20,000 nt of DNA from an uncultured virus (IMG/VR IMGVR_UViG_3300017725_002980) (IMGVR_UViG_3300017725_002980), one strand, 5' to 3'; numbered from the stretch's first letter, positions 505 to 17,472 are shown. Program-made: numbers and translations. Notes: a model not told the origin generated them from the sequence alone.

Positions 505-686
505 AAAAATTCCTAAAATTTCTTATAATTTGGATTAGTCAAAATATGGCTATACCTTTTTGGATGATAGGACACGTTCATTTAAGTTTAAATATATATC
601 AAGACTTACACGAGATAATCGCTAGTGTAGGGATGAATATTTTAGTAGCGATTGGATTTTATTTAGATTATAAACAAAACAAATAG
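501..686 (+). CDS. Small predicted membrane protein (61 aa)
   Basis: Basic N-terminus and two hydrophobic stretches (FLIIWISQNMAIPFWMIG; IIASVGMNILVAIGFYL). Start overlaps the upstream stop (ATGA). Confidence 0.6.
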   Translation: MKKFLKFLIIWISQNMAIPFWMIGHVHLSLNIYQDLHEIIASVGMNILVAIGFYLDYKQNK

Positions 687-688
687 TC

Positions 689-937
689 ATGGATCAACAA
701 CAAATGCCAAATATTGACCTTAAAAATACAGAGTCAGTAGAACACAAAAATGGAAAAGTATGGGCTCAAGGGTTCGTTATTAGGAAAATCTCTAAATTCG
801 TAGCAGGTACTCCTGAAGACGCTTTTATGCCTATCCCAGTCTTTTATAACCCAGCTGATGGTGAAATTTTTCAAGAAACCCTACCAAAAGAATTAAGAGA
901 TGAAACAGGTGACAACCCTCTTCGAGTGGTTGAATGA
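689..937 (+). CDS. Hypothetical protein between the clamp-loader subunit genes
   Basis: 82-aa ORF filling the gap; overlaps the next gene by 38 nt. Confidence 0.65.
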   Translation: MDQQQMPNIDLKNTESVEHKNGKVWAQGFVIRKISKFVAGTPEDAFMPIPVFYNPADGEIFQETLPKELRDETGDNPLRVVE

Positions 938-1331
938 GATAACTCTCTATAAAACAGCTCCTGAAGAAATTTCGCAAGAATCGTGGGATAAATGGAATTC
1001 TTACATGATACATAGATATGTATCTATGAACATAGGCTACATTGATATAGTAAATTATGTTCAAAAGATTAATCCACAAAACAAAAAACAAATTTATTCC
1101 ATCTATCGCGAAATGTTACCAAAGAAGAAAGTTTACCTCAAATATGTAAAAAACCAAAATAAAAAAAATTACCAAGAACTAGCTGAATATGTTGCTGATT
1201 ATTATGAATGCTCCTTAGGTGAAGCTGATTATTATATTGATATTTTAGGCATTAGTGTTAGAAGTATTTTATGGAAAATGGGAGTAGAAGAGGATGAAAC
1301 TGAAAAATTAATAAAAAAAGCATTATTATAA
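900..1331 (+). CDS. Clamp loader small subunit (T4 gp62-like)
   Basis: Pattern WNSYMIHRYVSM..YIDIVNYVQ..QIYSIYREMLPKKKVYLKYVK..VADYYECSLGEADYYIDIL resembles gp62-family proteins, and the gene lies just downstream of a gp44-like gene. Confidence 0.75.
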   Translation: MKQVTTLFEWLNEITLYKTAPEEISQESWDKWNSYMIHRYVSMNIGYIDIVNYVQKINPQNKKQIYSIYREMLPKKKVYLKYVKNQNKKNYQELAEYVADYYECSLGEADYYIDILGISVRSILWKMGVEEDETEKLIKKALL

Positions 1332-1340
1332 ACAAGTTAT

Positions 1341-2015
1341 ATGAATTATTTAAATACCCCCAATGGATGGGAAATAGTTAAAGAAGAAGGCTTTAATTGG
1401 GGCTCTATAGAAAATATTAACGCTAGACGTCAGGTATACCAAGAAGTTTGGGTAAATAAATTATATGAAAAAATATTTGAGGTTGAAGAAGGAGATATTG
1501 TTATTGATTTAGGTGCTGGTATTGGTGATTTTACTTGGAGTATTAGAAATAATAAACCCCAAGCTATATACTGTTTTGAACCCGGTGCAGATTCTCAAAA
1601 ATCTCTTCCTCTCTTAAAAGAGAATACATCTCAAATTCCAAATTGTTTTATTATTGAAAAATTTATGTCTAGTATTGATAATAAAAATAATATTACTTGG
1701 GATACTTTTTTAAAATCTAATCATTTAAATAAAATTGATTTTGTAAAAACTGATTGTGAAGGAGGAGAATATGAAATTTTTAAACCTGAAAATATTTTTT
1801 GGGTAAAAGAAAATATAAAAAAAATAGTAGGTGAATGGCATCTATCAACACCAGAATTAAAATCAAAATTTAGGATTTTTAGAGATACATATTTAAGATT
1901 ATTTCCTAATCATGAGGTTAATTCGGTTAATGGTGTAGACATTAAATGGGATTTATGGAATGAACATTTTATTGAATATTATAACGAAGTAATAATTTAT
2001 ATAGATAATAGATAA
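1341..2015 (+). CDS. FkbM-family SAM-dependent methyltransferase
   Basis: VIDLGAGIGDF (motif I), YCFEP, IDFVKTDCEGGE, VGEWH. Confidence 0.88.
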   Translation: MNYLNTPNGWEIVKEEGFNWGSIENINARRQVYQEVWVNKLYEKIFEVEEGDIVIDLGAGIGDFTWSIRNNKPQAIYCFEPGADSQKSLPLLKENTSQIPNCFIIEKFMSSIDNKNNITWDTFLKSNHLNKIDFVKTDCEGGEYEIFKPENIFWVKENIKKIVGEWHLSTPELKSKFRIFRDTYLRLFPNHEVNSVNGVDIKWDLWNEHFIEYYNEVIIYIDNR

Positions 2016-2350
2016 TGATGAAATCAAGTGAAATTATTAAAAAAGAATATCCTCATATTTACAATGGTTATATGGATATCATGGAAGAGCAGCTGGAGTT
2101 ATTCAGTAAAAAACATCTGGACTATGGTATGGCTAATATCAGTGCTGGGACTTTACTTTCTACTAAAGAAGAAAGGGCTTTTGCTCTTACAGGACTTTGG
2201 TATAGAATAAGTGATAAAATTAGTAGATGGAAAAATTTATTAATTACTAATAAAGTTATTAATAACGAACCTCTAACAGATACTTACCAAGATATTGTAA
2301 ATTATGGTATCATTGCTCAATTAGTTGAGCGTGGTTTATGGAAAAAATAA
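2015..2350 (+). CDS. DUF1599 / nucleotide-modification-associated domain 1 (Nmad1)-like protein
   Basis: KKHLDYG..NI, GLWYRISDKISRWKNL and EPLTDTYQDIVNYGII match the family signature (KxxDYG / RxxDKxxR / ExxxDTxxDxxNY). Confidence 0.8.
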   Translation: MMKSSEIIKKEYPHIYNGYMDIMEEQLELFSKKHLDYGMANISAGTLLSTKEERAFALTGLWYRISDKISRWKNLLITNKVINNEPLTDTYQDIVNYGIIAQLVERGLWKK

Positions 2351-3705
2351 AATTAGTTATATTTGATTTAGATGGTGTTTTAGTTGAAGCTAAAACCATC
2401 CATTATGATGCTCTAAACCAGGCGTTAGGTAAAGACTATACTATTAGTTGGAATGAACATCTATCAGTTTATGATGGGTTAAAGACTAACCAAAAATTAG
2501 AAATGCTTACTGAACGTAAGGGTTTACCTACAGAATTACATTCTAAAATTTGGGAAAGTAAACAAAAATATACACTTCAAATGCTTAAAGAACTTCAGCC
2601 GGATGAAACATTACAATCTGTAATGAATTCTCTAGTTGAGTGTGGTTATAAAATTGCTGTATGTTCTAATTCAATACGAAAAACTGTATTAACAGTTCTA
2701 TCTAAATTAGGGATAATGGAGTTTATGGATTTAGTTATATCTAATGAAGATGTAAAAAATTCCAAACCTCACCCTGAAATGTACTGGAAAGCAATATCAA
2801 TGATGAGTTGTTTACCTGAGGAGACATTAATCGTAGAAGATTCACCTTATGGTTTGTTAGCAGCATCTCGTTCTAAATCTCATGTATTAAGAGTTACTAA
2901 ACCTCAGGATGTTACTTATGATAATATTTTTAATAAATTAACAGAAATAGAAAAAGGCCAAATTATGAAATCCCCAGCATGGAGAGATAATAAACTAAAT
3001 GTATTAATTCCAATGGCGGGTGCTGGTTCTAGATTTACGCAAGCAGGGTATACCTTCCCAAAACCTCTTATTGATGTTCAAGGAAAACCAATGATCCAAG
3101 TAGTAGCTGAAAATTTAAATATTAAAGCTAACTTTATTTACATAGTACAAAAAGAACATAGATTAAAATATAATTTAGATACTTTACTTAATTTAGTTAC
3201 ACCAAATTGTAAAGTTGTAGAAGTTGATGAATTAACTGAGGGAGCAGCGTGTACCGCATTATTAGCTAAAAATTTTATTGATAACAATTCACCCTTATTC
3301 TTTGCTAACTCAGATCAATTTGTAGAATGGGATTCAAATGAATTTTTTTATAAAATGAATGAAACTGAAGTTGATGGGGGAATTGTTACATTTAAATCAA
3401 CTCATCCAAAATGGTCATTTGCCAAAACTGATGATCAAGGATTTGTAACAGAAGTTGCAGAAAAAAACCCTATATCTGATTTAGCAACAGTAGGTTTTTA
3501 TTATTGGAAACATGGTTCTGATTTTGTTAAATATGCTGAACAAATGATTAATAATAATATTAGAGTAAATGGTGAATTTTACGTTTGCCCCGTATATAAT
3601 GAAGCTATTCAAGACAACAAAAAAATTATAACCTTTAATATTCCCAAAATGCGGGGATTAGGTACTCCTGAAGATTTAAAGTATTTTTTAGAAAATTATA
3701 AATAA
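2338..3705 (+). CDS. Fusion: N-terminal HAD phosphatase/mutase (beta-PGM-like, capped) + C-terminal sugar-phosphate nucleotidyltransferase
   Basis: HAD motifs FDLDGVL, CSNS, KPHPE, VEDSPYG. NTP-transferase motifs LIPMAGAGSRF..PKPLIDV.GKPMI, ANSDQF, VAEKNPIS, NGEFYVCP, GLGTPEDL. Confidence 0.9.
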   Translation: MEKIKLVIFDLDGVLVEAKTIHYDALNQALGKDYTISWNEHLSVYDGLKTNQKLEMLTERKGLPTELHSKIWESKQKYTLQMLKELQPDETLQSVMNSLVECGYKIAVCSNSIRKTVLTVLSKLGIMEFMDLVISNEDVKNSKPHPEMYWKAISMMSCLPEETLIVEDSPYGLLAASRSKSHVLRVTKPQDVTYDNIFNKLTEIEKGQIMKSPAWRDNKLNVLIPMAGAGSRFTQAGYTFPKPLIDVQGKPMIQVVAENLNIKANFIYIVQKEHRLKYNLDTLLNLVTPNCKVVEVDELTEGAACTALLAKNFIDNNSPLFFANSDQFVEWDSNEFFYKMNETEVDGGIVTFKSTHPKWSFAKTDDQGFVTEVAEKNPISDLATVGFYYWKHGSDFVKYAEQMINNNIRVNGEFYVCPVYNEAIQDNKKIITFNIPKMRGLGTPEDLKYFLENYK

Positions 3706-4028
3706 TGGATATTTTAAAACTAAAAGATATGGTTGGTGGTTGGTTTGTAGGTGATTTTGAACCTACAGCTTATAAAACTAAAGATTTTGAAGTAAGTTAT
3801 AAAACCCACCCTAAAGGAGAAGTATGGGATAATCATTATCATAAAATAGCTACAGAAATTAACTATCTAGTTCGCGGTAATATGAATCTAAGTGGGACTC
3901 ACCTAAAAGAAGGTGATATATTCATACTACACCCAGAGGAAATAGCTGTTCCTGAATTCTTAACAGATTGTGAAATAGTCTGTGTTAAAACAGCAAGTGT
4001 AAAAGGAGATAAATATATAGTAGAATGA
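3705..4028 (+). CDS. Cupin-domain protein (possible sugar isomerase/epimerase)
   Basis: HYHKIATEINYLVRG (HxH-x4-E cupin motif 1) and LKEGDIFILHPEE (motif 2-like). Confidence 0.8.
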   Translation: MDILKLKDMVGGWFVGDFEPTAYKTKDFEVSYKTHPKGEVWDNHYHKIATEINYLVRGNMNLSGTHLKEGDIFILHPEEIAVPEFLTDCEIVCVKTASVKGDKYIVE

Positions 4029-5110
4029 ATATAGTTATACCAATGGCGGGTTTAGGAACTCGATTTTTTAATGAAGGTTTTACATTACCTAAACCATTAA
4101 TTGAAACTAATGGTAAAACACTTATTGAACATTCAATTTCAACATTAGGGGTTCAAGGAAAATATATTTTTATAACTCGTAAATATGATAACCCTGAGCA
4201 TAATGTACTTTTAACTAAACGTTTAAATGAAATTCAACCTAATAGTATTGAAATCCAATTAAACGAACCTACTAAGGGTGCTACTGAAACTGCTTTAGCA
4301 GCTAAACAATATATTAATAATAATGAACCTCTTATTATTACTAATTGTGACCAAATTACAGATTGGGATGCTTCTAAATTTAATGAATTTATTTCTAACC
4401 CTACTATTGAAGGAGTAATAGTTACCTACCCTTCTACTAATCCTAAAAATAGTTTTGCTATAGTAGAAGATGATCAAGTTGTAAAACTAGTTGAAAAGAA
4501 AGCAGTATCAGATATAGCTTTAATTGGAGTCCACTATTGGAGAGAAGGGTATATGTTTGTAGAAACAGCTGAAATGCTCTTAGGGGATTTTGAAGAAGAA
4601 GGCAGACCTGAATGTTATATATCAGAAACATATAACTACTTACTCTATAAAGGAGCTAATATTAAAAACTATCATATCTCAGCTAATGAATATATTCCAT
4701 TAGGTACTCCCTATGATCTAAAAATTTATGAGGGTAAAGTAAAAGAATTCCATACTGAAAAACCTAAAACTATATTCTGTGATATAGATGGTACCTTAGT
4801 AAAACACGCTCATAGATTTAGTGATTTAAAAGATACTAAACCTGTATTACTTCCAGATGTTAGAGAGAAATTTAATCAATGGGATTCTCAAGGCCATAAA
4901 ATTATTTTGTGTACTGCTCGTAAAGAATCTGCTCGTGAAATGACTGAATCCCATTTACAAATGTTAGGGTTATGTTGGGACATATTAATTATGGGAGTTA
5001 CTAGTGGACAACGCGTTTTAATTAACGATAAATTAAATGTAGCACATACTGATAGAGCAATAGGAATCAACGTTATAACCAACGAAGGTTTTAAAAATAT
5101 AGAATTATGA
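4025..5110 (+). CDS. Fusion: N-terminal sugar-phosphate nucleotidyltransferase + C-terminal capless HAD phosphatase
   Basis: MNIVIPMAGLGTRF..PKPLIE..GKTLI, TNCDQ, LVEKK and PLGTPYDL, then FCDIDGTL, LCTAR and LINDK HAD motifs. Confidence 0.88.
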   Translation: MNIVIPMAGLGTRFFNEGFTLPKPLIETNGKTLIEHSISTLGVQGKYIFITRKYDNPEHNVLLTKRLNEIQPNSIEIQLNEPTKGATETALAAKQYINNNEPLIITNCDQITDWDASKFNEFISNPTIEGVIVTYPSTNPKNSFAIVEDDQVVKLVEKKAVSDIALIGVHYWREGYMFVETAEMLLGDFEEEGRPECYISETYNYLLYKGANIKNYHISANEYIPLGTPYDLKIYEGKVKEFHTEKPKTIFCDIDGTLVKHAHRFSDLKDTKPVLLPDVREKFNQWDSQGHKIILCTARKESAREMTESHLQMLGLCWDILIMGVTSGQRVLINDKLNVAHTDRAIGINVITNEGFKNIEL

Positions 5111-5547
5111 AATTAATATCACATAGAGGAAACCTAGAAGGTCCTAACCCAGAAAGAGAAAACCACCCAGATTATATTTATGAAGCTATCCAAGCTGGGT
5201 ATGACGTAGAAATTGATATTTGGTTTGTAGATGGGAAATTTAAATTGGGTCATGATGAACCTCAATATGATTTTCCTTTTGATTTATTTAGTAATTTTTA
5301 TACTAAACTCTGGATTCATTGTAAAAACTTAGAATCTCTTTCTCAATTAAATAACTTAGATAGTAATGGCTCTAAATTAAATTATTTTTTTCATGAAGGT
5401 GACCTTGGAGTTTTAACTTCAAAAGGGTATATTTGGTCAACAAACCAATGTGAACGAGCGGTTTTAGTAATGCCTGAAACCTTTAATCAAGAACCAAATG
5501 AAAAAACATTTGGGGTTTGTAGCGATTATGTAGTAAACTATAAATAA
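5107..5547 (+). CDS. Short GDPD/PLC-like phosphodiesterase-fold protein
   Basis: ISHRGN..EN, GYDVEIDIW, LGHD, WIHCKN and GVCSD match glycerophosphodiester phosphodiesterase-like motifs. Confidence 0.8.
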   Translation: MKLISHRGNLEGPNPERENHPDYIYEAIQAGYDVEIDIWFVDGKFKLGHDEPQYDFPFDLFSNFYTKLWIHCKNLESLSQLNNLDSNGSKLNYFFHEGDLGVLTSKGYIWSTNQCERAVLVMPETFNQEPNEKTFGVCSDYVVNYK

Positions 5548-6158
5548 TGCCTATAAACCAAAAATATAATTTACTATTTATCCATATTCCTAAAAATGCT
5601 GGTACAACTATTGAAAATATTTTCTCTATGTATAGTAATCCTAGCAGCTTATGGTCAGGAAGTGAATTAGTTTTAGATGAGGGTAATTTTGCCCCCCAAC
5701 ATTTAAATTATAGTTTACTTAATAAGTATTATACTAATATAGACTTTTCTAAAATGATTAAGTTTACCTTTGTTAGAAATCCTTATTCTAGAACTATTTC
5801 TTTATTTAATTGGAATTTAAAACAGAATTATTATAAACCTAAATTTGATAATAAATTTACTAATAGAGAATTTGAAAATTTTTTAGTAAGTTTTATCTCA
5901 AAACTAGACTCATCACATAAATTACCTCAAAGTTTTTATTTTGATTGTGATTATGACTTTATAGGTAAAGTAGAAAACTTTAAAGAAGATTTTACTAACT
6001 TTCTAACTAAATATAATATTGCTATAAAATATAAAGGCCAACATGATAATAAAACTAATAGTAACCAAATTTTAAATAATTTATCTTCGAAAAATATTAA
6101 TCTAATTAATACTTTATATGAAGAAGATTTTAAAAGGTTTAATTACGATATGATATGA
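5547..6158 (+). CDS. Sulfotransferase (Sulfotransfer_2-like)
   Basis: FIHIPKNAGTTI (5'-PSB loop), FVRNPYSRTIS (3'-PB), DFIGKVENF, YEEDFKRFNY. Confidence 0.88.
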   Translation: MPINQKYNLLFIHIPKNAGTTIENIFSMYSNPSSLWSGSELVLDEGNFAPQHLNYSLLNKYYTNIDFSKMIKFTFVRNPYSRTISLFNWNLKQNYYKPKFDNKFTNREFENFLVSFISKLDSSHKLPQSFYFDCDYDFIGKVENFKEDFTNFLTKYNIAIKYKGQHDNKTNSNQILNNLSSKNINLINTLYEEDFKRFNYDMI

Positions 6159-6937
6159 AAATAGCAGTTGTAACAGCTACTTATCAACGAGGTGACGGTA
6201 ATACCCCATTAGTATTAACTCGAGCTATTGAATCTTTAAAAAAACAAGCCCACACTGATTGGAAGTTTTTCCTTATAGGAGATGCTTATGCAGATCAAAA
6301 TGAATTTAATTCTTTTTCTAATCTTCTACCTTCTAATAAAATTTATACAGAAAACCTCCCAGTAAGTATAGAACGTGAAAAATACCCTCCAGGCACTGAT
6401 AGATGGCATGTTAGTGGAATTACCCCTGTAAACATAGGTATAGAACGTGCTTTAGAAGAAGGTTTTGATTATATAGCTTTATTAGATCATGATGATCTTT
6501 GGTATCCTGACCATTTACAATTAATAAATGAAGGAATTAAAAAAACTAAATCCCCATTTATCTTTACTAGAGGATTTTATGAAGTTTCTAATGGAATAAG
6601 TGTAGGTATACCTTACCATGGGTATGAATCTGAAAAATTCGAACAATTACGTGTTAATGTAGATAATCCTATTAAATTAAATTATGGTTTTAACGGGTAT
6701 GCTTGCTTTCCTTATGAATGTATTTTCCTTAAAACCTCAGTTTGTTTAGATTGTAGGTTAATTAAGTTAAGAATGAGAGATTGTTTAGAAGAAACTGGAA
6801 AAAGTTCTGTGGGAGATGCTGATTGGTGGTTAAGAATTAGAGAAGAAATGATAGAAGGTAAATATAAACCTGCTTTATTTATAGACCATATTACGTGTGC
6901 TAATATAGATGAAGGGTATAGTAAAACTAACACATAA
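6155..6937 (+). CDS. Glycosyltransferase family 2 (GT-A)
   Basis: IAVVTATYQR..RAIESLKKQ..DWKFFLIGD; FDYIALLDHDDLW (DxD). Confidence 0.85.
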   Translation: MKIAVVTATYQRGDGNTPLVLTRAIESLKKQAHTDWKFFLIGDAYADQNEFNSFSNLLPSNKIYTENLPVSIEREKYPPGTDRWHVSGITPVNIGIERALEEGFDYIALLDHDDLWYPDHLQLINEGIKKTKSPFIFTRGFYEVSNGISVGIPYHGYESEKFEQLRVNVDNPIKLNYGFNGYACFPYECIFLKTSVCLDCRLIKLRMRDCLEETGKSSVGDADWWLRIREEMIEGKYKPALFIDHITCANIDEGYSKTNT

Positions 6938-7869
6938 TGAAACCAGCAATTTTAATTACATCTCATCCTAATACAGATGAAAAAGAACAAATTTTACAAA
7001 ATTTTGGAAACTTTATTTCTCAGTATAAAATAGACCATTACTTAGTTACTAACTATCCTCCTAAATCAGATACTCAAAAAAAGTTTAAAGGTTCATTTTT
7101 TTATAATAATAATCCACCTGGTCCTTTTTTAGGTAACGTATGGCTAACCTTTCCCCCAATTAGAAAGACACATCATCAAATTATCCCAAATTGGACTTAT
7201 TCCTTTATGTTATTATTATTAAACGGTGTTAAAAACTTAAAAAATTTAGGTTATACCCATTTTATCTATTTAGGATATGATTCTCTCCCAGATTATGATC
7301 TTATTAAAAATTATATAGATAAAAGTTTATCAATATTAAAAGATAAAAAAGCTACATTTACTGAGTATGAGTTAGGGTGGGAAGATTCTTTAAGTAGTAC
7401 TAATTGTGCTAGTGAAATAGACTTCTTTATAGAAGTATTTGAAAATAGTTTAGAATTATATTTAAAAAGAGAACTTCCTACACTATGTGAACAGTATTGG
7501 TACTCATCTTTATCTCTATATTTAAAGCAAGTCCAAATCCTCCCTAAATCTGATGCAATCCCTACTACATTTGATAGTGCTAGTTCTAACTATAAATTTA
7601 AATCTGGAAACTACTATTTAGGGTTTGATAAATCTTCTAATAATATTCTAATAATCACAGATAACTTAACCTTAAGTATTCAAGATAAAAATTCAAATAT
7701 AATTCCACATAATTTTTTAAGTTCTAATCTTAAATCAGAATATTTTCCTAAAGAATTAACTGCATATAAACTTGAATCTATAGAAGATGAAAAATATTAT
7801 GTAGATGATGAACTTTTATTTATTAATACTCCTGAATGGAGAAATTTAAATTATTTTGAAGACCTATGA
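6937..7869 (+). CDS. Hypothetical protein, possible divergent GT-A-like enzyme; paralog of 18178..19164
   Basis: 310-aa ORF coupled to both neighbours. N-terminal motifs align by eye with the 18178 protein (NT..K, YP...TQK, NP, NLGY.....YD). Confidence 0.6.
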   Translation: MKPAILITSHPNTDEKEQILQNFGNFISQYKIDHYLVTNYPPKSDTQKKFKGSFFYNNNPPGPFLGNVWLTFPPIRKTHHQIIPNWTYSFMLLLLNGVKNLKNLGYTHFIYLGYDSLPDYDLIKNYIDKSLSILKDKKATFTEYELGWEDSLSSTNCASEIDFFIEVFENSLELYLKRELPTLCEQYWYSSLSLYLKQVQILPKSDAIPTTFDSASSNYKFKSGNYYLGFDKSSNNILIITDNLTLSIQDKNSNIIPHNFLSSNLKSEYFPKELTAYKLESIEDEKYYVDDELLFINTPEWRNLNYFEDL

Positions 7870-8405
7870 CCTATAATGACTTAATATCCAAATTACATTC
7901 CTACTCAAGAATAATAGTCTCAGGACCTCAAAGATCAGGTACTACTTATGCAGCTTTTACTTTATCTCAAGATTTAGAATATAAACATATTGATGAACAA
8001 GAATTTGGTACTCATACTGCAGAAGGATTTTTAAATGTTCTTTCTCAAGAAAATATTGTAGTACAATGTCCTGCTGTATCCCATGTTTTAGACCAAATCC
8101 AATCCCAAAATACTATCATTTTGTGGATGGATAGAGATAATGAAGATATTGCTAAAAGTGAAGATAGAATTGATTGGCATCCTCATTGGTTTAATGTTGA
8201 AAAAAACAAATACAGAACTATATATGGTGATGAAGTTGATAAATTTGAAAGAAATTCATTAATGAAAAAACATTATTGGAATATTCAAAAACAAAATTTA
8301 AAAACAGATTATTTAGATATTCCATACTCTATTTTAAAAGAAACAAAAGGTTTTATTTCAAAAACTCAAAGAAAAGATTTTGGAGTAAAACAAATACAAT
8401 TATAA
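7866..8405 (+). CDS. P-loop sulfotransferase-like protein
   Basis: IIVSGPQRSGTTY (GxxRSGTT) and ILWMDRDNEDIAKS (R-x6-S, 3'-PB-like). A kinase cannot be excluded. Confidence 0.65.
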   Translation: MTYNDLISKLHSYSRIIVSGPQRSGTTYAAFTLSQDLEYKHIDEQEFGTHTAEGFLNVLSQENIVVQCPAVSHVLDQIQSQNTIILWMDRDNEDIAKSEDRIDWHPHWFNVEKNKYRTIYGDEVDKFERNSLMKKHYWNIQKQNLKTDYLDIPYSILKETKGFISKTQRKDFGVKQIQL

Positions 8406-8439
8406 ATTTGGTTACCCGAGAATCCTTTCGTATATTTAC
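8406..8439 (+). promoter_or_regulatory. Bacteroidota sigma70-type promoter (-33 TTTG / -7 TAnnTTTG-like), copy 1
   Basis: TTTG at 8407-8410, 20-nt spacer, TATATTTA at 8431-8438. Sits in one of the few intergenic gaps; 26/34 nt identical to 19166-19199. Confidence 0.78.
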
Positions 8440-8454
8440 CGATTAAATAATTTA

Positions 8455-9291
8455 ATGATTAATATTCAATATAATCACCCAAATATAAGAGTAGAAACTA
8501 AACAAGTTTCTATGCTACATAATTTACCTTTAACTTTAAATGTTAAATCTCATGTTAGTAAAGAAACTACATGGAACTGTCAATTGGGGGACTACAGCTG
8601 GGCAACTTTTTCTAATGATTCTATTTTTGATATTGAAATAAAGGATTCTAAAGGTAAAATTGTTATTAATAGGGAATTTAATATTTTAGAAGATGGAAGT
8701 TATTTAGACAAAGCACTACAGATGTACTGCCAAAACTTAAATAACCCCCAAGGTTTAGCAATAGGCTCTCATGATGGTGAGTTTGGAGAATGGGTTTTAC
8801 CTACTTTAGGTAATTTTACTAAAACAACTTTAGTAGAAGCATCAACCCCTCAATTTAAAAAACTTAAAAAAAATTACCAAAATCTCTCTAACGTAAATTT
8901 GATTCAAAATCTAGTTACTACAGATGGTTCTAAAGTAGAATTTTTTGAAGGAGGTAAGGGTTATACTAATTCTGTTAAAGAAAATGTAATTAGAAGTTGG
9001 GAAAAAGAAGAAATTAATTCCAATTTACGTGACTCTATTTCAATTAATGATTTAATAAATCAAATTACCCCAAATAAAAAATTAGATTGGCTACATTTAG
9101 ATATTGAAGGGTATGATGCTGAAATACTTAAAGCAATAAACGTGGAGTTATTACCTAATTTTATTATATTTGAACATAACAACTTATCTAATAAAGATAA
9201 AACAAGTATAGAAAAATATTTTACTGATCTAAATTATACTCTTTATAACGAAGACCCAGTGTCTTATTTAGTAATTAAAGATAATGGCTAA
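8455..9291 (+). CDS. FkbM-family methyltransferase with N-terminal extension
   Basis: AIGSHDG (motif-I-like), LVEAS, LDWLHLDIEGYDAEIL, IIFEH. Confidence 0.8.
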   Translation: MINIQYNHPNIRVETKQVSMLHNLPLTLNVKSHVSKETTWNCQLGDYSWATFSNDSIFDIEIKDSKGKIVINREFNILEDGSYLDKALQMYCQNLNNPQGLAIGSHDGEFGEWVLPTLGNFTKTTLVEASTPQFKKLKKNYQNLSNVNLIQNLVTTDGSKVEFFEGGKGYTNSVKENVIRSWEKEEINSNLRDSISINDLINQITPNKKLDWLHLDIEGYDAEILKAINVELLPNFIIFEHNNLSNKDKTSIEKYFTDLNYTLYNEDPVSYLVIKDNG

Positions 9292-10228
9292 GAAAAAAGC
9301 TCCTCAAATAGTTAGGAATATAAAAAATAATCCACCTAAACCGGTTGATTTTGCTTATGAGAAAAATATCTCATACTCCCAGCTATCAATGTATACACAG
9401 TGTCCTAAAAAATGGGCTCTACAATATAGAGATGGTCATAAAATAAAGGAACAAAGCATTCATATGACTTTTGGGACTGCATTACATGAGACATTGCAAA
9501 TGTACCTTGATGTTATGTATAATCAAAGTGCAGTAAAAGCTGATGAGTTAGATTTAGAAACAGATTTTGAAACCCGATTAAGAGATTGTTATGCAGAAGC
9601 TTATAAACAAAATAAAGGAGAGCATTTTACTGACGCCCAAACACTTCGAGAATTCTATTCCGACGGTGTTGAAATTATAAATTATATTAGAAAAAATAGA
9701 AGAAATTATTTTTCTAAACGTGGTTGGTGGTTAGTAGGTTGTGAAATACCAATTGTATTGGCGCCAAATCCGCATTTACCACGCGTTAAATACATGGGCT
9801 TCCTTGATGTCGTGATGTATAATGAAAATACAAATAAATTCATTATAATCGATATAAAAACCTCGACACGAGGGTGGAATGATAAAGCTAAAAAAGACAA
9901 ATCAAAGCAACATCAGTTAGTTCTATATAAAAAATTCTTTTCTCAACAATATAATATCCCAATAGATGATATTGATATTGAGTTCTTTATTGTAAAACGT
10001 AAGTTATATGAATCACAAGATTTTGTAATAAAACGTATCCAACAATTCAGACCCCCCTCAGGTAAAACTTCAATTAATAGAGCAACAAAATCACTAAATG
10101 AATTTTTAGATAATTGTTTTACATCTGAGGGGTATAATGAGAAGAATATGCCTGCTCTAATTAATAATAATTGTAAATGGTGTTCTTACTTCAAAACACA
10201 TTTATGTTCTGCGACTTTTGAAGGATAA
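9284..10228 (+). CDS. PD-(D/E)XK exonuclease, Cas4/RecB/AddB-like, with Fe-S cysteines
   Basis: ISYSQL..YTQCPKKW, FGTALHE, GFLD, IIDIKTS, QLVLY and a C-terminal CKWC-x7-C. Confidence 0.9.
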   Translation: MAKKKAPQIVRNIKNNPPKPVDFAYEKNISYSQLSMYTQCPKKWALQYRDGHKIKEQSIHMTFGTALHETLQMYLDVMYNQSAVKADELDLETDFETRLRDCYAEAYKQNKGEHFTDAQTLREFYSDGVEIINYIRKNRRNYFSKRGWWLVGCEIPIVLAPNPHLPRVKYMGFLDVVMYNENTNKFIIIDIKTSTRGWNDKAKKDKSKQHQLVLYKKFFSQQYNIPIDDIDIEFFIVKRKLYESQDFVIKRIQQFRPPSGKTSINRATKSLNEFLDNCFTSEGYNEKNMPALINNNCKWCSYFKTHLCSATFEG

Positions 10229-10230
10229 TA

Positions 10231-10242
10231 ATATACGTATAT
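10231..10242. promoter_or_regulatory. Perfect 12-bp palindrome ATATACGTATAT upstream of the RHH-like gene
   Basis: Self-complementary sequence in the 35-nt intergenic gap 10229-10263. Confidence 0.35.
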
Positions 10243-10263
10243 AAAAATATAATAAATAACGTT

Positions 10264-10452
10264 ATGGCTAGTACAGATAAAAAAACACTTACAAGTGTTA
10301 AAATCAAAAGTGATTTATTCAACGAATTTAAAATTGAGTGTGTAAAACGTAAGTTCTCTTTCCAGAAACTTGCCGACCGCGCTATTCATTTATATCTTAC
10401 AAATGAAGATTTTAGAAAAAAAATAAATAATCACAACAACTTAGAACTTTAA
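10264..10452 (+). CDS. Small ribbon-helix-helix-like DNA-binding protein
   Basis: Alternating beta-strand TLTSVKIK, helix SDLFNEFKIECVKR, turn, helix SFQKLADRAIHLYL (CopG/ParG-like pattern). Confidence 0.65.
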   Translation: MASTDKKTLTSVKIKSDLFNEFKIECVKRKFSFQKLADRAIHLYLTNEDFRKKINNHNNLEL

Positions 10453-10456
10453 GTAA

Positions 10457-11884
10457 ATGAAAGAAGGTTATATTCCTAAAGAGCAACGGAAAAATATTTT
10501 GTTGCTTACTGATGATATCAGATTCCCATCAGGTGTAGGCAATGTAGGTAAAGAAATAGTTTTACATACATCCCACCGTTATAATTGGTTTAACTTAGGG
10601 GCAGCAATGAATCACCCTGATAAAGGTAAAATAATTGATATTTCGGAAGAAACTAATAAATTAGCAGGAATTAAAGATGCTAGTGTTAAAATTCAACCAA
10701 ATGATGGTTATGGGGATCCTAAAATTTTACGTAACTTAAGAAAGCAACATAAAATTGATGCTATATTTTTAATTACAGATCCACGTTACTTTGAGTGGTT
10801 GTTCCAAATTGAAAATGAGGTTAGAAATGAAATTCCTATTATCTATTTAAATATTTGGGATGATTTACCTGCTCCTATGTATAATAAGGGATTTTATGAA
10901 TCCGTTGATACACTATTAGGTATTTCTAAGCAAACAGTTAACATCAATAAAATGGTTTTGGGGGATAAAGCTAAAACTAAAATTATTGATTATGTACCTC
11001 ATGGTATGAATACCGAAGTTTTTCATCCTATTATAGTAGAAGATTTAGAATTTACTACATTTAAAAAACAATTAAATGTTGAAGATAAAGATTTTATTTT
11101 ATTCTTTAATTCTAGAAACATCAGACGTAAAAACATCCCAGATACAATGTTATCTTGGAAGTATTTTTTAGATGAATTACCTAAAGAAAAAGCAGATAAA
11201 TGTGTATTCATACTTCATACAGAATTAGTTAGTGATCATGGTACAGATCTTTCTGCAATAGCTAACTTAATTTTTGGAGAGAATAGCCCTCATATTAGAT
11301 TTTCTACTAATAAATTATCAGCTCAACATCTAAATTACCTATATAATTTAGCAGATGCTCAGATTTTATTAACCTCAAACGAAGGTTGGGGTTTATCTCT
11401 TACTGAAGCCTTACTAACAGGCACTCCTATAATTGCTAATGTAACAGGTGGTATGCAAGATCAAATGAGATTTGAAGATAAAAATGGAAATTGGATTGAC
11501 TTTGATTCTAATTTTCCTTCTAATCATAGAGGTACTTATAAAAAACATGGTAAATGGGCTTATCCTGTTTACCCCTCATCACGTTCTTTAAAAGGTTCTC
11601 CTAAAACTCCTTATATTTGGGATGATACTTGTGATCCCGAAGATGCTTCTAAACAAATTATGAAGCTTTATAAAATGTCCCCTGAACAACGAAAAAAATC
11701 AGGGATGAAAGGTTATAAATGGGCAATAGGAGATGAAGCAGGTTTTACTGCTAAACATCAAGCTCAACGTGTAATCAAAAGTATTGATAAAACATTTGAA
11801 GATTTCCAACCAAGAGAAAAATTTGAATTTATTAATACTAATGAGTATAAAATAGAAACTGTTCCACATAAATTATTATATTAA
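10457..11884 (+). CDS. Glycosyltransferase family 4 (GT-B)
   Basis: YVPHGMN, FNSRNIRRKN, SNEGWGLSLTEA (E-x7-E), PIIANVTGG. Confidence 0.9.
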   Translation: MKEGYIPKEQRKNILLLTDDIRFPSGVGNVGKEIVLHTSHRYNWFNLGAAMNHPDKGKIIDISEETNKLAGIKDASVKIQPNDGYGDPKILRNLRKQHKIDAIFLITDPRYFEWLFQIENEVRNEIPIIYLNIWDDLPAPMYNKGFYESVDTLLGISKQTVNINKMVLGDKAKTKIIDYVPHGMNTEVFHPIIVEDLEFTTFKKQLNVEDKDFILFFNSRNIRRKNIPDTMLSWKYFLDELPKEKADKCVFILHTELVSDHGTDLSAIANLIFGENSPHIRFSTNKLSAQHLNYLYNLADAQILLTSNEGWGLSLTEALLTGTPIIANVTGGMQDQMRFEDKNGNWIDFDSNFPSNHRGTYKKHGKWAYPVYPSSRSLKGSPKTPYIWDDTCDPEDASKQIMKLYKMSPEQRKKSGMKGYKWAIGDEAGFTAKHQAQRVIKSIDKTFEDFQPREKFEFINTNEYKIETVPHKLLY

Positions 11885-13143
11885 TGAAACCCTTATTTTT
11901 AATTAGTTGTCCTTTTGATACTTACTCTGGTTATGGAGCTCGTAGTAGAGATGTTGTTAAAGCTATTATTAAAACAGATAAATATAAAGTTAAATTAATT
12001 TCCCAACCTTGGGGAAACACTAGATTTGGATTTTGCGATGATCATCCAGAATGGGAATTTTTAAATAACCATATTTTAAATGAAGAATTAATCGATAAAC
12101 CTGAATTTTGGGCTCAGATAACCGTACCTAATGAATTTCAACCTATGGGAAAATTTAATATTGGAATTACAGCAGGTATTGAAACTACATTAGCAAATGG
12201 AGCATGGGTTGAAGGTATGAACAGAATGAATTTAAATTTGGTATCATCAGAACACTCTAAAACCTCATTTAAGAATGCCGTTTGGGAAAAGAAAGATAAA
12301 GCAGGTAAAACTATAAGTTCTATTCGCCTTGAAAAACCTATTGAAGTGTTATTTGAAGGAGTTAATTTAGACACCTACTTCCCAGATAATAAACCATGTA
12401 TGATTGATTTTGATATTAAGGAATCATTTGCTTTCTTATTTGTAGGTCATTGGTTACAAGGGGAAATAGGCCAAGATAGAAAAAATGTTGGGTTATTAGT
12501 TAAGGCCTTTTTAGAGACTTTTAAAAATAAATCTAAACAACCAGCATTAATTCTTAAAACATCGGGTGCTAATAGTTCTTACATGGATAAAAATGAGATT
12601 CTTAGAAAAATTCATGTAATTAAACAGAGTTGTAAGGGAAATCTTCCTAACATATATTTACTTCACGGTGATTTTACAGATAAAGAAATGAATTCTCTTT
12701 ATAATCATTCTAAAGTTAAAGCTATGGTTAGTTTAACTAAAGGTGAGGGATTCGGTAGACCTTTATTAGAATTTACTTTAACTAAAAAACCATTAATTGC
12801 AACAAAATGGAGTGGTCATATGGATTTTCTTAATCCTAAATTTACTACATTAATTAATGGTAAACTAGAAAATGTCCATCCTAGTGCTGCTAACCCAATG
12901 TTATTAAAAGAAAGCCAATGGTTCTCCCCAGACCACAAGGATATTTCAAAATCATTAAAATCTGTATTTGAAAATTATAAAAAATATTCTGAACTAGCAA
13001 AACGTCAGGCCCATTATAGTAAAACAAATTTTGATTGGGAAAGTATGAAAGATAAATTAGATAATCTTCTTACTGCTTTTGCCCCAGAATTCCCAAAACA
13101 AATCGAATTAGCAATCCCAGAATTAACCTTACCAACATTATGA
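11884..13143 (+). CDS. Glycosyltransferase family 4 (GT-B)
   Basis: SGYGARSR, FLFVGHW..DRKNV, KGEGFGRPLLE (E-x7-E), PLIATKWSGHMDF. Confidence 0.9.
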   Translation: MKPLFLISCPFDTYSGYGARSRDVVKAIIKTDKYKVKLISQPWGNTRFGFCDDHPEWEFLNNHILNEELIDKPEFWAQITVPNEFQPMGKFNIGITAGIETTLANGAWVEGMNRMNLNLVSSEHSKTSFKNAVWEKKDKAGKTISSIRLEKPIEVLFEGVNLDTYFPDNKPCMIDFDIKESFAFLFVGHWLQGEIGQDRKNVGLLVKAFLETFKNKSKQPALILKTSGANSSYMDKNEILRKIHVIKQSCKGNLPNIYLLHGDFTDKEMNSLYNHSKVKAMVSLTKGEGFGRPLLEFTLTKKPLIATKWSGHMDFLNPKFTTLINGKLENVHPSAANPMLLKESQWFSPDHKDISKSLKSVFENYKKYSELAKRQAHYSKTNFDWESMKDKLDNLLTAFAPEFPKQIELAIPELTLPTL

Positions 13144-13595
13144 GTGTAGATAATTTAACAATATGTGATAGATGTGGAAGTGACGCATGCTATGTACAAG
13201 AAGTAAATAATGAGATTAAAAACTATATGTGTTATGGTTGTGGTTTCATTACAAATTCATTAATGAAAAAAGATGAACAATTTTTTGAAGAACAATTTGC
13301 TCTTTTACCTAAACTTTATAAAGAAATATCAGGTGAAGATGAAAAAACAGGTTTAATTTGGATGCCCAATACTGTAAATATCCCAAATAAGGGAATGGTA
13401 TTTGCTGAGGGTCAAAGTGCTGAAAAGTGGATGTGGTCCGCTGTAAAAGCAGTTCCTATGCCTAAAGAAGAGAAAGAATCATTTAAAGCTAAAGGTAAAG
13501 ATTATGAATTTAAAATGGATATGACTACTATAAAATATTACCCTGAAAGTGATTTTATGGATGCTTTAGAATATATTGGTGTTTTTGAAAATTAA
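13140..13595 (+). CDS. Hypothetical protein with N-terminal zinc ribbon
   Basis: CDRCGSDAC..CYGCGF (two CxxC pairs). Confidence 0.65.
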   Translation: MSVDNLTICDRCGSDACYVQEVNNEIKNYMCYGCGFITNSLMKKDEQFFEEQFALLPKLYKEISGEDEKTGLIWMPNTVNIPNKGMVFAEGQSAEKWMWSAVKAVPMPKEEKESFKAKGKDYEFKMDMTTIKYYPESDFMDALEYIGVFEN

Positions 13596-13598
13596 AAT

Positions 13599-14225
13599 AT
13601 GAAATTAAGTTATGCAATCCCTGTTTGTAATGAATTAGTAGAAATTCAACATTTAATTAAATTTTTACTAGATAACAAACGCCCCGAAGATGAAATTGTA
13701 GTATTATATGATTCAAAAAATGGAGATCCTGGAGTAGAAACTTATTTACGTAAAATGAATGTTGAAAGGACCTTATTTAGATGGAAACCTTTTAAATTCA
13801 ATGGCAATTTTTCAGACATGAAAAATCGTTTAAATGGAATGTGTGAAGGCGATTACATATTCCAGATTGATGCTGACGAAATGCTTAATGAATACATGAT
13901 AAAGATAATCCCTCAAGTGTTAGAGATTAATCAAGGGGTAGATTTAATGAGAGTTCCACGTATTAATAAAGTAGAAGGATTGACTGAGGCCCATATTCAA
14001 AAATGGGGTTGGAAAGTTGATGAAAAAGGTAGAGTAAATTGGCCTGATATGCAGTGGAGATTATATAGAAATGATCCACGTATTAGATGGCATGGTGAGG
14101 TACATGAAAAAATTATTGGGCATGCTACACATGCTGTTTTACCTATAAAAGAAGATTTTGCTTTAATTCATAATAAAACAATCGAACGCCAAGAAAAACA
14201 AAATGCTTACTACGATACTTTATGA
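13599..14225 (+). CDS. Glycosyltransferase family 2 (beta-1,4-glucosyltransferase/WaaE-like)
   Basis: LSYAIPVCNE, FSDMKN, YIFQIDADE, RLYRN..WHGEVHE. Confidence 0.87.
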   Translation: MKLSYAIPVCNELVEIQHLIKFLLDNKRPEDEIVVLYDSKNGDPGVETYLRKMNVERTLFRWKPFKFNGNFSDMKNRLNGMCEGDYIFQIDADEMLNEYMIKIIPQVLEINQGVDLMRVPRINKVEGLTEAHIQKWGWKVDEKGRVNWPDMQWRLYRNDPRIRWHGEVHEKIIGHATHAVLPIKEDFALIHNKTIERQEKQNAYYDTL

Positions 14226-14995
14226 TTTCAGTTATAATCCCAACATATAAAGAACCAGATGTACTTGATATTTGTTTAAATTCAATATTTAAGGGTCAAG
14301 ATGGTGATAATGAAATTATTGTGGTAGTTGATGGATTTAAAGATTTAAACCAACAAGTATTAGATAAATACCCTAAAACTAAAATAGTAAATTTTAATGA
14401 TAATAAGGGTGCTATTACATCCACAAATTGGGGAGTTTATAATGCATCTAATGATTTTATTTTAATAGTAAATGATGATAATGTTTTTCCTGAACATTGG
14501 GATACAAAATTAAAACCATATTGTCAAAAAGGTAAAGTAATTACAATCAACCAGATTGAAGCTCAACCTTCAATGTTTAAACAAACCCATATTAAAAATT
14601 TAGGGACTCCAGAATCTTTCAATTTAAAAACTTTCTGGGAATACGAAGCATCACTTCCTATCCCACCTCATGAAAAATCAGGATCACAATGGCCTTTCTT
14701 AATGTATAAACCTGATTATATGGCTGTTGGGGGGTTAGATGTTTATTATCCTTCACCTCATGTTGTTGATTGGGATTTTATGTTAAAGTGTGAATATGTA
14801 GGTTTTGAAATGGTTAGAGTTTATGATTTACATTTATATCATTTTGGTAGTATAGCAACTAGAAGAGATCCTTTAATGAATCAAATTAGTAGTGAAAAAG
14901 AAAAACAAGCACATTACTTTTTTTCAAATAAATGGGGTCAAACAATAGAACATGATCCACAAACCAATTCTAAATTATTAACTAAATTTAAATGA
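14222..14995 (+). CDS. Glycosyltransferase family 2
   Basis: ISVIIPTY, EIIVVVDG, ILIVNDDNV, VGGLD..DWDF, YHFGS. Confidence 0.88.
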   Translation: MISVIIPTYKEPDVLDICLNSIFKGQDGDNEIIVVVDGFKDLNQQVLDKYPKTKIVNFNDNKGAITSTNWGVYNASNDFILIVNDDNVFPEHWDTKLKPYCQKGKVITINQIEAQPSMFKQTHIKNLGTPESFNLKTFWEYEASLPIPPHEKSGSQWPFLMYKPDYMAVGGLDVYYPSPHVVDWDFMLKCEYVGFEMVRVYDLHLYHFGSIATRRDPLMNQISSEKEKQAHYFFSNKWGQTIEHDPQTNSKLLTKFK

Positions 14996-17309: not shown

Positions 17310-17472
17310 ATTATCTGTCCTACAAGTAATGCAGATTATGTCAGATAATGACTTTGTTTATATGATGGAGTATGAACCTGGTACTATAATATCATTATGT
17401 AATGCTTTAAGTATTGAACTTCAAGAATCAAAAGAAAATGAAAGTATTAGTAATAGGAGAAACTTGTGTTGA
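17299..17472 (+). CDS. Small hypothetical protein (57 aa)
   Basis: Same frame as track ORF 17254..17472; ATG at 17299 preferred because it gives a short overlap with the preceding small ORF. Confidence 0.5.
   Translation: MVSKLSVLQVMQIMSDNDFVYMMEYEPGTIISLCNALSIELQESKENESISNRRNLC

Follow-up and report, generated by a model that had tools for sequence, protein, structure and literature searches.

Upon analyzing a 20,000-nucleotide stretch of DNA from an uncultured virus (the window), we found it reasonably probable that a set of phage genes serves to build sugar chains on the virion proteins of the phage itself, and that the window holds the portion of this set located on the replication side. 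A virion protein, rather than DNA, is the most likely acceptor, and collagen-like fibres are probably among the sugar-coated virion proteins. Assembly of the chains within the infected cell would account for the lack of genes for export or a lipid-carrier step. As judged by homology, three families of the variable cassette (that of the partner glycosyltransferase phrog_13607, a 310-aa family, and FkbM methyltransferases) are, in relatives, located in the fibre cluster, relocated to it, or fused with its genes.

The window belongs to an incomplete 73-kb contig from the genome of a myophage, a relative of Flavobacterium phage immuto. The phage nature assumed in an initial sequence-only reading was borne out by sheath, tube, baseplate, PolB, holin, and endolysin genes on the contig and by capsid, portal, and terminase genes in a complete relative (G010, 95 proteins). 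Profile matches likewise recovered the gene content of that reading, namely two FkbM methyltransferases (PF05050), three GT2 (6155, 13599, and 14222), two GT4 (10457 and 11884), two nucleotidyltransferase/HAD fusions, and a nuclease; its list lacked the DUF1599 gene (2015), the 310-aa ORF (6937), the 62-aa ORF, and the Cys-motif ORF (13140). Positions 1341-14995 comprise 18 co-directional ORFs that mostly overlap or lie ≤4 bp apart, with wider gaps of 49 bp before 8455 and 35 bp before 10264 (Table 1); the clamp-loader small subunit on the left flank is present in 66/81 related loci. Instead of the single island that had been proposed, we observed two things: a lineage-wide core that is fixed among relatives (Cas4-like nuclease, 62-aa ORF, GT4a, GT4b, Cys-motif protein, and GT2b), and a swappable cassette (2338-9291, or 1341-9291 in a wider sense). 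On either side of the core is a slot with sugar genes that vary among relatives, and the nuclease, previously read as an interruption, is the nearly universal first gene of the core. Nor did the limits 1341-14995 prove complete, as related genes lie outside them at 17414, 18178, and contig 1654-8961.

Table 1. Genes and motifs of the window, with the evidence for each.
Feature	Position	Strand	Evidence and occurrence
Clamp-loader large subunit (3' part), two small ORFs, clamp-loader small subunit	1..1331	+	PHROG 168 and 225; conserved left flank
FkbM-family methyltransferase 1, variable	1341..2015	+	PF05050, TIGR01444
DUF1599 ("nucleotide modification associated domain 1") protein	2015..2350	+	PF07659; semi-conserved slot marker, 46/81 loci
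HAD-IA (beta-PGM-like) + sugar-phosphate nucleotidyltransferase fusion (HAD-NTP)	2338..3705	+	Profile matches; core of predicted donor module
Cupin-like protein of donor module	3705..4028	+	phrog_24762; near HAD-NTP gene in 25/79 genome loci
Nucleotidyltransferase + HAD-III fusion of donor module	4025..5110	+	phrog_3980, PF25109
GDPD-like small protein of donor module	5107..5547	+	phrog_34507; near HAD-NTP gene in 56/79 genome loci
Sulfotransferase-family protein	5547..6158	+	PF03567 (Sulfotransfer_2) E 1.7e-16; motifs at residues 14 and 77
GT2 glycosyltransferase, variable	6155..6937	+	PF00535; DHDD motif
310-aa viral family	6937..7869	+	No Pfam match; WavE lead at 0.91
Probable second sulfotransferase-fold protein	7866..8405	+	Both PAPS-binding motifs; ESM Atlas 0.93 to Sulfotransfer_3 clusters
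CGTATATTT motif	8429..8437	+	Also upstream of ssDNA-binding gene; candidate early/middle promoter, putative function
FkbM-family methyltransferase 2, variable	8455..9291	+	PF05050
PD-(D/E)XK (Cas4-like) nuclease, resident core gene	9284..10228	+	PF12705; 80/81 related loci, first gene of conserved block
ATACGTAT motif	10233..10240	+	Same site as ATATTTAT of relatives; candidate late promoter of core operon
62-aa conserved ORF heading core operon	10264..10452	+	81/81 loci
GT4a, core GT-B glycosyltransferase	10457..11884	+	PF00534; 53% to immuto gp181
GT4b, core GT-B glycosyltransferase	11884..13143	+	PF00534; EX7E motif
151-aa core protein, two CxxC motifs, family-less	13140..13595	+	Sequence; 67/81 loci
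GT2b, core GT2 glycosyltransferase	13599..14225	+	PF00535; 53/81 loci; PDB matches weak
GT2c, only gene of second variable slot here	14222..14995	+	PF00535 E 6.8e-20; 16/81 loci
RfaE/HldE-kinase-like PfkB protein	17414..18181	+	TIGR02198 E 2.4e-36, below cut-off
328-aa paralog of 310-aa family	18178..19164	+	Homologs in fibre clusters of 5 loci at 32-39%

As had been claimed, none of these 18 ORFs encodes a membrane protein, since 19-residue Kyte-Doolittle means reached at most 1.57 in a crude scan, and 1161 of the 1192 ORFs of related loci are without a hydrophobic segment (maximum four segments in any ORF). We obtained no Pfam match to a flippase, polymerase, ABC exporter, or priming phosphoglycosyltransferase in the window or among 55 contig proteins, and neither an exporter nor a priming enzyme among 149 slot proteins of relatives or the proteins of G010, in agreement with the sequence-only reading. 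A bacterial O-antigen or capsule locus (Wzx-Wzy or ABC) was rejected on these missing genes and on the phage, not cellular, context. Gtr-type serotype conversion was also rejected, as its membrane GtrA/GtrB/GtrC cassette was not found; the only Gtr-like signal was a weak N-terminal GtrB-like PHROG match of the 14222 ORF, which has no hydrophobic segment. What the window does encode are soluble viral glycosyltransferases, a feature of virus-encoded virion glycosylation.

A second sugar-related cluster lies outside the window, before the tail sheath (contig 1654-8961). Here, contig 1654-3993 encodes a lysyl-hydroxylase/GT25/GT4 fusion (human LH3 E 5.5e-21, COLGALT1 E 3e-13) whose LH domain aligns HHD, H, and R with LH3, the HxD...H...R pattern, while the collagen-like ORF directly upstream has its repeat-region Lys in X-Lys-Gly (12/12). 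In both LH domain and X-Lys-Gly substrate, the predicted enzyme matches PLOD/L230-type collagen lysyl hydroxylases. Contig 6664-8961, between the fibre and sheath genes, encodes a GT4 fused to a TibC-type protein heptosyltransferase. Its C-terminal half scores 226 bits against a TIGR04414 cut-off of 200, aligns with TibC at E 3e-38, and has four aligned Cys, presumably iron-binding, and, at the position of an Ala in PDB 4rb4, an Asp that we take to be catalytic; no autotransporter substrate for it was found on the contig. Comparing clusters that were hand-picked and mutually related, such that their independence is overstated, we found Y-position Lys in the repeats at 1.4-26% in 16 hydroxylase clusters versus 0-1.2% in 9 clusters with the TibC-type gene only, whose repeats are mostly Ser/Thr-rich. 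Repeat chemistry thus appears to track enzyme content within this related set. The 6 kb upstream of a 50%-identical hydroxylase contained no repeat gene in six loci, and neither the hydroxylase nor the TibC-type gene was found in immuto, G004, G008, or G009, all of which keep the core.

The predicted sugar-donor module connects the window to this cluster. Full-length HAD-NTP homologs, about 59% identical, occur in 12 cyanophage records, and the gene is widespread in bacterial-genome loci. Its partner family, phrog_13607, has a GT-A fold and is present in three copies in the fibre cluster, about 50 kb away; it was detected in every phage record that holds a HAD-NTP homolog of full length (12/12) and near the HAD-NTP gene in 19/79 genome loci. 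Partner and module are both present in relatives G003, G010, and G011 and both absent from G004, G008, and G009, and the cassette slot of G011 holds an ortholog (61% identical) of the fibre-cluster copy. The module may resemble the E. coli K4 Kfo fructosylation genes (KfoD/KfoE); at the DNA level it gave no match in E. coli genomes. The cupin and GDPD-like genes named in the sequence-only reading are present, though their labels depend on sequence motifs because their sole matches are unnamed PHROGs. One distant homolog of the GDPD-like ORF is annotated near a GDPD. The kinase-like gene at 17414 is possibly part of an ADP-heptose supply, of which only this kinase step was found on the contig.

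Further cassette families point in the same direction. Homologs of FkbM 1 (49%) are neighbours of the TibC-type gene in 9 loci, and L128 has one as a fusion within that gene. In 5 loci the 310-aa family, likely a glycosyltransferase-like tailoring enzyme, separates the TibC-type gene from the tail sheath, and in Microcystis phage Mel-JY01 it forms part of the TibC-type polypeptide (HMM E 2.6e-17), a fusion that the 328-aa paralog matches at E 2e-8. As to the two sulfotransferase-like proteins reported earlier, the 5547 ORF was confirmed by its profile match, whereas the 7866 ORF, with neither a Pfam nor a PDB match, is a probable sulfotransferase-fold protein by its motifs and Atlas clusters; for both we applied the PAPS-binding motifs as we understand their definitions. 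No PAPS-making gene was found on the contig, and we infer sulfation and O-methylation of the glycan solely from family membership.

Of the core glycosyltransferases, GT4a was modeled with a pLDDT of 90 in a GT4-type fold; its nearest folds include the small-molecule GT4s MshA, BshA, and sucrose-phosphate synthase, and the fold search named no acceptor. GT4b occurs in 72/81 loci, most absences falling at contig ends. A complex prediction for the pair scored 0.85 (best control 0.00), at a mark reached by 116/157 solved pairs versus 2/215 mismatched pairs, with contact agreement of at least 93% and partner pLDDT of at least 88. GT4a and GT4b are predicted to pair, probably as a heterodimer, although a similarity to GT-B pairs of solved structure may account for the score. 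GtfA/GtfB is a paired protein O-glycosyltransferase in which GT4-type subunits form a complex and the second subunit is non-catalytic. We rejected this identity for GT4a/GT4b, which gave no such Pfam or NCBIfam match, nor one among the Foldseek matches listed, and which both keep EX7E.

Upstream motifs served as a proxy for timing. ATATTTAT precedes the tail sheath (23/23) and tube (28/28) genes, and a tail-type motif precedes the core in 61/64 distinct upstream regions (25 ATATTTAT, 36 ATAYGTAT) against a background of 32/1157. We infer from the swapping of the two at one site that ATAYGTAT may be the equivalent of the tail motif; in immuto, too, the core as well as the sheath and tube genes are preceded by the tail-gene motif. 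No tail-type motif was found at gene starts of the cassette (1341-9291), which appears to be co-transcribed with the replication genes. The CGTATATTT-type motif of FkbM 2, distinct from the tail motif, also stands before GT2b in 15/50 relatives, and the tail motif was found upstream of the TibC-type gene in 0/24 regions and of the hydroxylase fusion in 4/10.

We propose that the HAD/nucleotidyltransferase/cupin/GDPD-like module would make an activated sugar donor, to be consumed by phrog_13607 in the fibre cluster, where chains on collagen-like fibres would begin at hydroxylysine, through the lysyl hydroxylase + GT25 fusion, and/or at Ser/Thr, through the TibC-type heptosyltransferase. The presumably late core, a probable GT4a-GT4b heterodimer with GT2b, would start or extend a glycan on a lineage-wide virion protein, not necessarily the fibre. 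FkbM and sulfotransferase-fold enzymes would cap the sugars, and swapping of slots may change the coat in a serotype-like manner. A fuller version, in which a widespread lineage of Bacteroidota-type myophages possesses a complete membrane-free glycoprotein pathway over two loci, with animal-style hydroxylysine and TibC-style heptose priming of the fibre repeats, a late GT4 heterodimer, and swappable cassettes for rare, methylated, and sulfated sugars that create particle serotypes, is a tentative proposal that we consider possible but doubtful.

Other acceptors are conceivable. Many O-antigen glycosyltransferases are soluble, so the missing exporter is compatible with enzymes that act on surface glycans of the host (O-chain, capsule, or glycoproteins), whether these are linked to lipid or assembled in the cytoplasm, with priming and export borrowed from the host, so that an altered cell surface would block other phages or grazers. 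In type, the donor module and the slot genes are those of bacterial surface glycans, the module also occurs in cellular genomes, and the cassette appears to be located in a replication-side transcript, all of which suits a host-surface role. For similar islands in pelagimyophages (PMC7029224) and cyanomyophages (PMC12801897), host-surface or DNA modification is the published reading, offered in the available parts of these papers without experiment. We nevertheless hold a host-surface target to be unlikely, as a core behind a tail-gene motif would come late for superinfection exclusion, and cassette families lie between fibre and sheath genes and fuse with a protein heptosyltransferase. It is also quite improbable that only the fibre cluster modifies the virion while core and cassette serve another cytoplasmic acceptor (a non-virion host or phage protein or a small glycoside): the core is universal and the fibre enzymes patchy, and the GT4a fold neighbors would agree, but orthologs shift between cassette slot and fibre cluster, phrog_13607 and the donor module co-occur, and the large slot diversity fits a surface under selection.

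The cytoplasmic acceptor foreseen in the sequence-only reading, left there as virion protein or DNA, fits our results; the evidence favours the virion and makes hypermodification of phage DNA with a sulfated, methylated glycan very unlikely. The position after the clamp-loader genes would suit DNA; as a hint at the acceptor, it was not supported. Phage DNA glycosyltransferases do exist (cited in the accessible part of PMC12619734), the DUF1599 domain is named for nucleotide modification, and the contig is incomplete, with several 2OG oxygenases in the lineage without an assigned role. Against DNA, the published LC-MS of immuto, which carries the core at 39-55% identity, lists dA, dC, dT, and fdPreQ1 as the only nucleosides, a result covering the core but not the window's cassette. 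DpdA-like, QueC, QueD, QueE, and FolE genes already account for a DNA modification, and TET/JBP, C5-methyltransferase, and dCMP hydroxymethylase gave 0 matches in 55 + 30 contig proteins and the 95 of G010. An Asn in thymidylate synthase marks dUMP-specific enzymes, and the contig ThyA has it. T-even/TET-type glycosyl hypermodification was accordingly rejected, its hydroxymethyl-base supply not being found in this incomplete genome with a canonical ThyA.

Virion glycosylation, the reading we prefer, has partial counterparts elsewhere. Immuto shares the order nuclease, small ORF, GT4, GT4, Cys protein, and GT2, followed by a variable sugar slot, but its slot holds aminotransferases, an epimerase, and an acetyltransferase, and it lacks a detectable donor module; we found no literature study of its glycans. 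Like Aah/TibC autotransporter O-heptosyltransferases, contig 6664-8961 has the TIGR04414 domain, conserved Asp, and four Cys, yet differs in its GT4 fusion and fibre-sheath location. According to the available text of PMC9614988, Mimivirus encodes clade-specific fibril glycogene clusters with genes for making sugars, for transferases, and for methyl and sulfate-related steps, and its lysyl hydroxylase/glycosyltransferase L230 acts on viral collagen-like proteins; that is a eukaryotic giant virus, whereas here a tailed phage has a GT4-GT25-hydroxylase fusion and a TibC-type enzyme of predicted activity. In mycobacteriophages, phage-encoded soluble glycosyltransferases glycosylate virion proteins without export (Freeman et al. 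2023, as cited in the accessible part of PMC12619734). In these actinophages, as described there, capsid and tail-tube C-termini are glycosylated, whereas the present phage has far more genes, its own donor and tailoring enzymes, and repeat-rich candidate acceptor fibres. The hypervariable "LPS-like" islands of cyanomyophages and pelagimyophages, as far as described in the available parts of PMC12801897 and PMC7029224, likewise encode soluble glycosyltransferases and sugar enzymes in large and variable numbers, in another phage family with another core; the HAD-NTP module recurs together with its GT-A partner in cyanophages S-PRM1, S-CAM9, and others. Unlike their published interpretation, our comparison points to the virion. 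If the fuller version proposed above is true, a bacteriophage would bear a sulfated glycan on its virion, which would suggest that the cyanophage "LPS-like" islands, which share the donor module and transferase, also dress the virion, not the host.

The region that the sequence-only reading had taken for a single glycan island, interrupted by a Cas4-like nuclease, proved to consist of a fixed core and a swappable cassette. A search with the core glycosyltransferase GT4a (window position 10457) returned at least 598 related stretches, and across the best 80 of these plus Flavobacterium phage immuto (81 loci), we found a fixed block of the nuclease (80/81), a 62-aa ORF (81/81), GT4a (81/81), GT4b (72/81), a Cys-motif protein (67/81) and GT2b (53/81), with absences mainly at contig ends. 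The nuclease is hence a resident member of the core; its reading as an insertion or a CRISPR gene was ruled out by this distribution, its TIGR00372 match lying below cut-off. The slot between clamp loader and nuclease, by contrast, is variable: the cupin, GT2a, the 310-aa protein, the gene at 7866 and FkbM2 were confined, among the 81 loci examined, to two near-identical copies, while in 62 other loci spanning the slot it was empty or held DUF1599 alone in 33 and carried the HAD-nucleotidyltransferase fusion (HAD-NTP) in one. Slots of relatives hold glycosyltransferases of families GT2, 9, 11, 17, 25, 29 and others, besides aminotransferases, epimerases, methyl-, acetyl- and sulfotransferases and an APS-kinase-like gene; the gene content of two slots (L021 and L055, see table) suggests ulosonic-acid coats.

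All glycan enzymes read from the sequence were found in the window, and none contains a hydrophobic segment, the sequence-only reading having seen no multi-TM pattern in them. Most of their labels are firm, those of the cupin, the GDPD-like protein and the second sulfotransferase (7866, with no match in the PDB) being less well supported than the others. The phage origin was likewise borne out: the window is the final 20 kb of a linear viral contig of 73,043 bp that encodes tail sheath, tube, baseplate, split PolB, DnaB, RNR, ThyA, GroES/EL, holin and endolysin, and a complete 170-kb relative (G010) carries capsid, portal and terminase genes. Immuto is the nearest cultured phage by GT4a (53%), and this relationship, the sole basis for the assignment, would place the host in the Bacteroidota.

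About 50 kb upstream of the window genes, a second cluster lies between a collagen-like ORF and the tail sheath, with a gene order conserved among relatives. In hand-picked groups, Y-position Lys amounted to 1.4-26% in hydroxylase-bearing clusters (n=16) versus 0-1.2% in those with the TibC-type gene only (n=9), and Ser/Thr to 5-50% versus 29-91%; excluded from this comparison were duplicates, L115 (hydroxylase absent from the stretch, Lys 6/21), 13 hydroxylase loci with <2.3 kb upstream, and six loci with a 50%-identical hydroxylase and no repeat gene within 6 kb upstream. Two cultured phages show the same kinds of arrangement. In the 45-kb Roseobacter phage CRP-6, a Lys-rich collagen tail fibre stands two genes before a hydroxylase fusion of 589 aa that the record lists as a hypothetical protein, and in Microcystis phage Mel-JY01, a Ser/Thr Gly-X-Y repeat ORF, for which the record annotates the opposite strand and a short 3' piece, is followed by a 1227-aa fusion of GT4, 310-aa-family, methyltransferase and TibC-type parts.

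Locations of the second (fibre) cluster and other features in the contig and its relatives
Feature	Location	Remarks
Fibre cluster	G000:C1:1-8961 (L001:2-8961)	
Collagen-like ORF	contig 2-1402	5' end missing
GT4-GT25-hydroxylase fusion	contig 1654-3993	779 aa; LH3 E 5.5e-21, COLGALT1 E 3e-13
Second 2OG oxygenase	fibre cluster	
Three phrog_13607 genes	fibre cluster	one copy shortened, divergent
GT4 fused to TibC-type heptosyltransferase	contig 6664-8961	directly before tail sheath
Hydroxylase fusion in two ORFs	L110:4791-7109	635 + 125 aa; genuine break or assembly error
CRP-6 fibre and hydroxylase fusion	L272:3952-7564	
Mel-JY01 repeat ORF and fusion	L271:635-8430	repeat ORF, + strand 635-3052
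7-Deazaguanine cluster	G000:C1:37727-44718 (L003:1727-8715)	DpdA-like gene, QueC, QueD, QueE, FolE; DegT aminotransferase + GNAT pair inside, such a pair filling sugar slots in relatives
Split PolB	G000:C1:45336-48874	596-aa and 308-aa genes, three small ORFs between
PolA-like gene	21146	419 aa; separate from split PolB
PAS/histidine-kinase-type protein and response-regulator receiver	G000:C1:30262-31934 (L002:10262-11931)	near lysis genes
HNH-type protein	window 15572-16210	N-terminal helix-turn-helix; conserved after second slot
SLT-like transglycosylase	window 16691-17176	hydrophobic stretch at N-terminus
DAHP/KDO-synthase-like, cytidylyltransferase and GT29 sialyltransferase-family genes	L021:14473-18810 and L055:15369-17033	slots of relatives
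RuBisCO-like protein	G010, L315:8434-9666	directly 3' of donor-module cupin
SET-domain protein; phosphatidylserine-decarboxylase-family protein	G010, L316:9227-9625 and L319:479-1210	

Several families connect the cassette with the fibre cluster. Modeling gave the phrog_13607 protein a GT-A fold (pLDDT 92), with BoGT6a as its top Foldseek match (E 2.9e-6, TM 0.47), and 12 of 12 phage records with a full-length homolog of HAD-NTP, the first gene of the cassette's donor module, also carry phrog_13607 within ~2 kb, such cyanophages making up 14 of the 15 phrog_13607 records. In genome collections, the family lies near the donor module in 19 of 79 loci, some of them possibly phage contigs in bins. 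Both occur together in the source phage and the related genomes G003, G010 and G011; neither was found in G004 (one weak partial match), G008 or G009 (82% and 63% complete), and HAD-NTP was found in none of G005-G009 (0/5), of which G005 ends before the slot and is uninformative. The window's donor module has no adjacent phrog_13607, the copies of the source phage sitting in the fibre cluster, and within the G011 cassette there is an ortholog of the copy that L105 and G010 carry in their fibre clusters (61% identity). Furthermore, the 310-aa family is located between the TibC-type gene and the sheath in five loci, and FkbM1 homologs adjoin the TibC-type gene in nine closely related loci and are fused to it in L128. 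A RuBisCO-like protein was rejected as a fixed part of the donor module, as it occurs only in G010 and 3/83 loci and is absent from the source contig; it may hint at the sugar that the module makes. The donor module may resemble the Kfo fructosylation genes of E. coli K4; a comparison at the DNA level gave no match in E. coli genomes. The available portions of PMC8858990 and PMC13171598, used for this comparison, hold no domain data for the K4 fructosylation proteins.

Within the core, GT4a was modeled as a GT4-type GT-B enzyme fold; its structure was dropped as a guide to the acceptor, since the matches were to generic GT4 enzymes and none named an acceptor, and GT2b gave weak PDB matches only. 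GT4a and GT4b are predicted to form a complex, with a score of 0.85 against 0.00 for the best control (the mark is reached by 116/157 solved and 2/215 mismatched pairs), contact agreement of at least 93% and partner pLDDT of at least 88, through GT4a residues 455-466 and GT4b residues 256-264; the prediction was built on alignments made here, and resemblance to solved GT-B pairs may raise its score. The motif ATATTTAT precedes the tail sheath in 23/23 and the tube in 28/28 distinct upstream regions, and it (25) or ATAYGTAT (36) precedes the first ORF of the core in 61/64 and also in immuto, against a background of 32/1157. This tail-type motif is absent upstream of the nuclease (0/57), DUF1599 (0/38) and the clamp loader (0/49) and was not seen at cassette gene starts; FkbM2 has a different motif, common to the ssDNA-binding gene. 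Upstream of the core, the motif is a candidate late promoter.

The sequence-only reading had proposed a cytoplasmic acceptor, either virion protein or DNA, and the two parts fared differently: a virion protein is probably the acceptor, and phage DNA is highly improbable. The contig encodes a 7-deazaguanine route, which already accounts for DNA modification, its DpdA-like label resting on weak DUF6610/NF041059 matches and with no QueF seen on the contig. The ThyA of the contig has the Asn of dUMP-specific enzymes, and no TET/JBP or C5-methyltransferase match came up among the proteins of the contig or those of the 95 G010 ORFs scanned (of 134), the remainder being mostly homologs of annotated contig genes and ORFs across 20-kb cuts being missed. 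Moreover, in the LC-MS data seen for immuto, its DNA contained only dA, dC, dT and fdPreQ1 (bioRxiv 10.1101/2023.04.13.536721); as immuto has the core, this control applies to the core and not to the window's cassette.

The host surface is an unlikely acceptor. Similar islands have been interpreted as host-surface or DNA modification in the portions available of PMC7029224 and PMC12801897, and such assignments for large aquatic phages were made without a test in the literature found, as far as its accessible text goes. The exporter and priming genes whose absence had been noted were missing from the slots of relatives too: the 149 of 169 slot-family representatives scanned (best five families per protein) include neither a flippase or polymerase nor an ABC exporter or priming transferase. 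A near-identical record reaches 15 kb beyond the window and adds an RmlC-like gene, a 2OG oxygenase and another FkbM, besides just one small 4-helix ORF (scan of four of its ORFs). Another cytoplasmic molecule is a quite improbable acceptor. In immuto, G004, G008 and G009, all of which bear the core, no hydroxylase or TibC-type gene was found, so that in these phages at least the core must act on something besides such fibres.

With a virion protein as the favored acceptor, the gene set is real and would be a new form within virus-encoded virion glycosylation, not a separate category; its sulfate and heptose supply would be partly host-dependent. In the parts seen, PMC12619734 describes core glycosyltransferases in another Bacteroidota-phage lineage and cites virion and DNA glycosylation, and PMC9614988 treats mimivirus L230 and glycogene clusters (further background, likewise seen in part: PMC10202952, PMC12220804, PMC8968730). 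The literature found, mostly open-access main texts, held no acceptor test for this lineage and no description of phage TibC-type or collagen-hydroxylase systems. The question is testable in cultured phages: immuto, which has the core and analysed DNA, CRP-6 and Mel-JY01. The enzymes are candidate tools for producing hydroxylated, glycosylated collagen in bacteria, and a glycosylated phage coat would affect host range, particle stability, grazing and the reading of virion proteomes.
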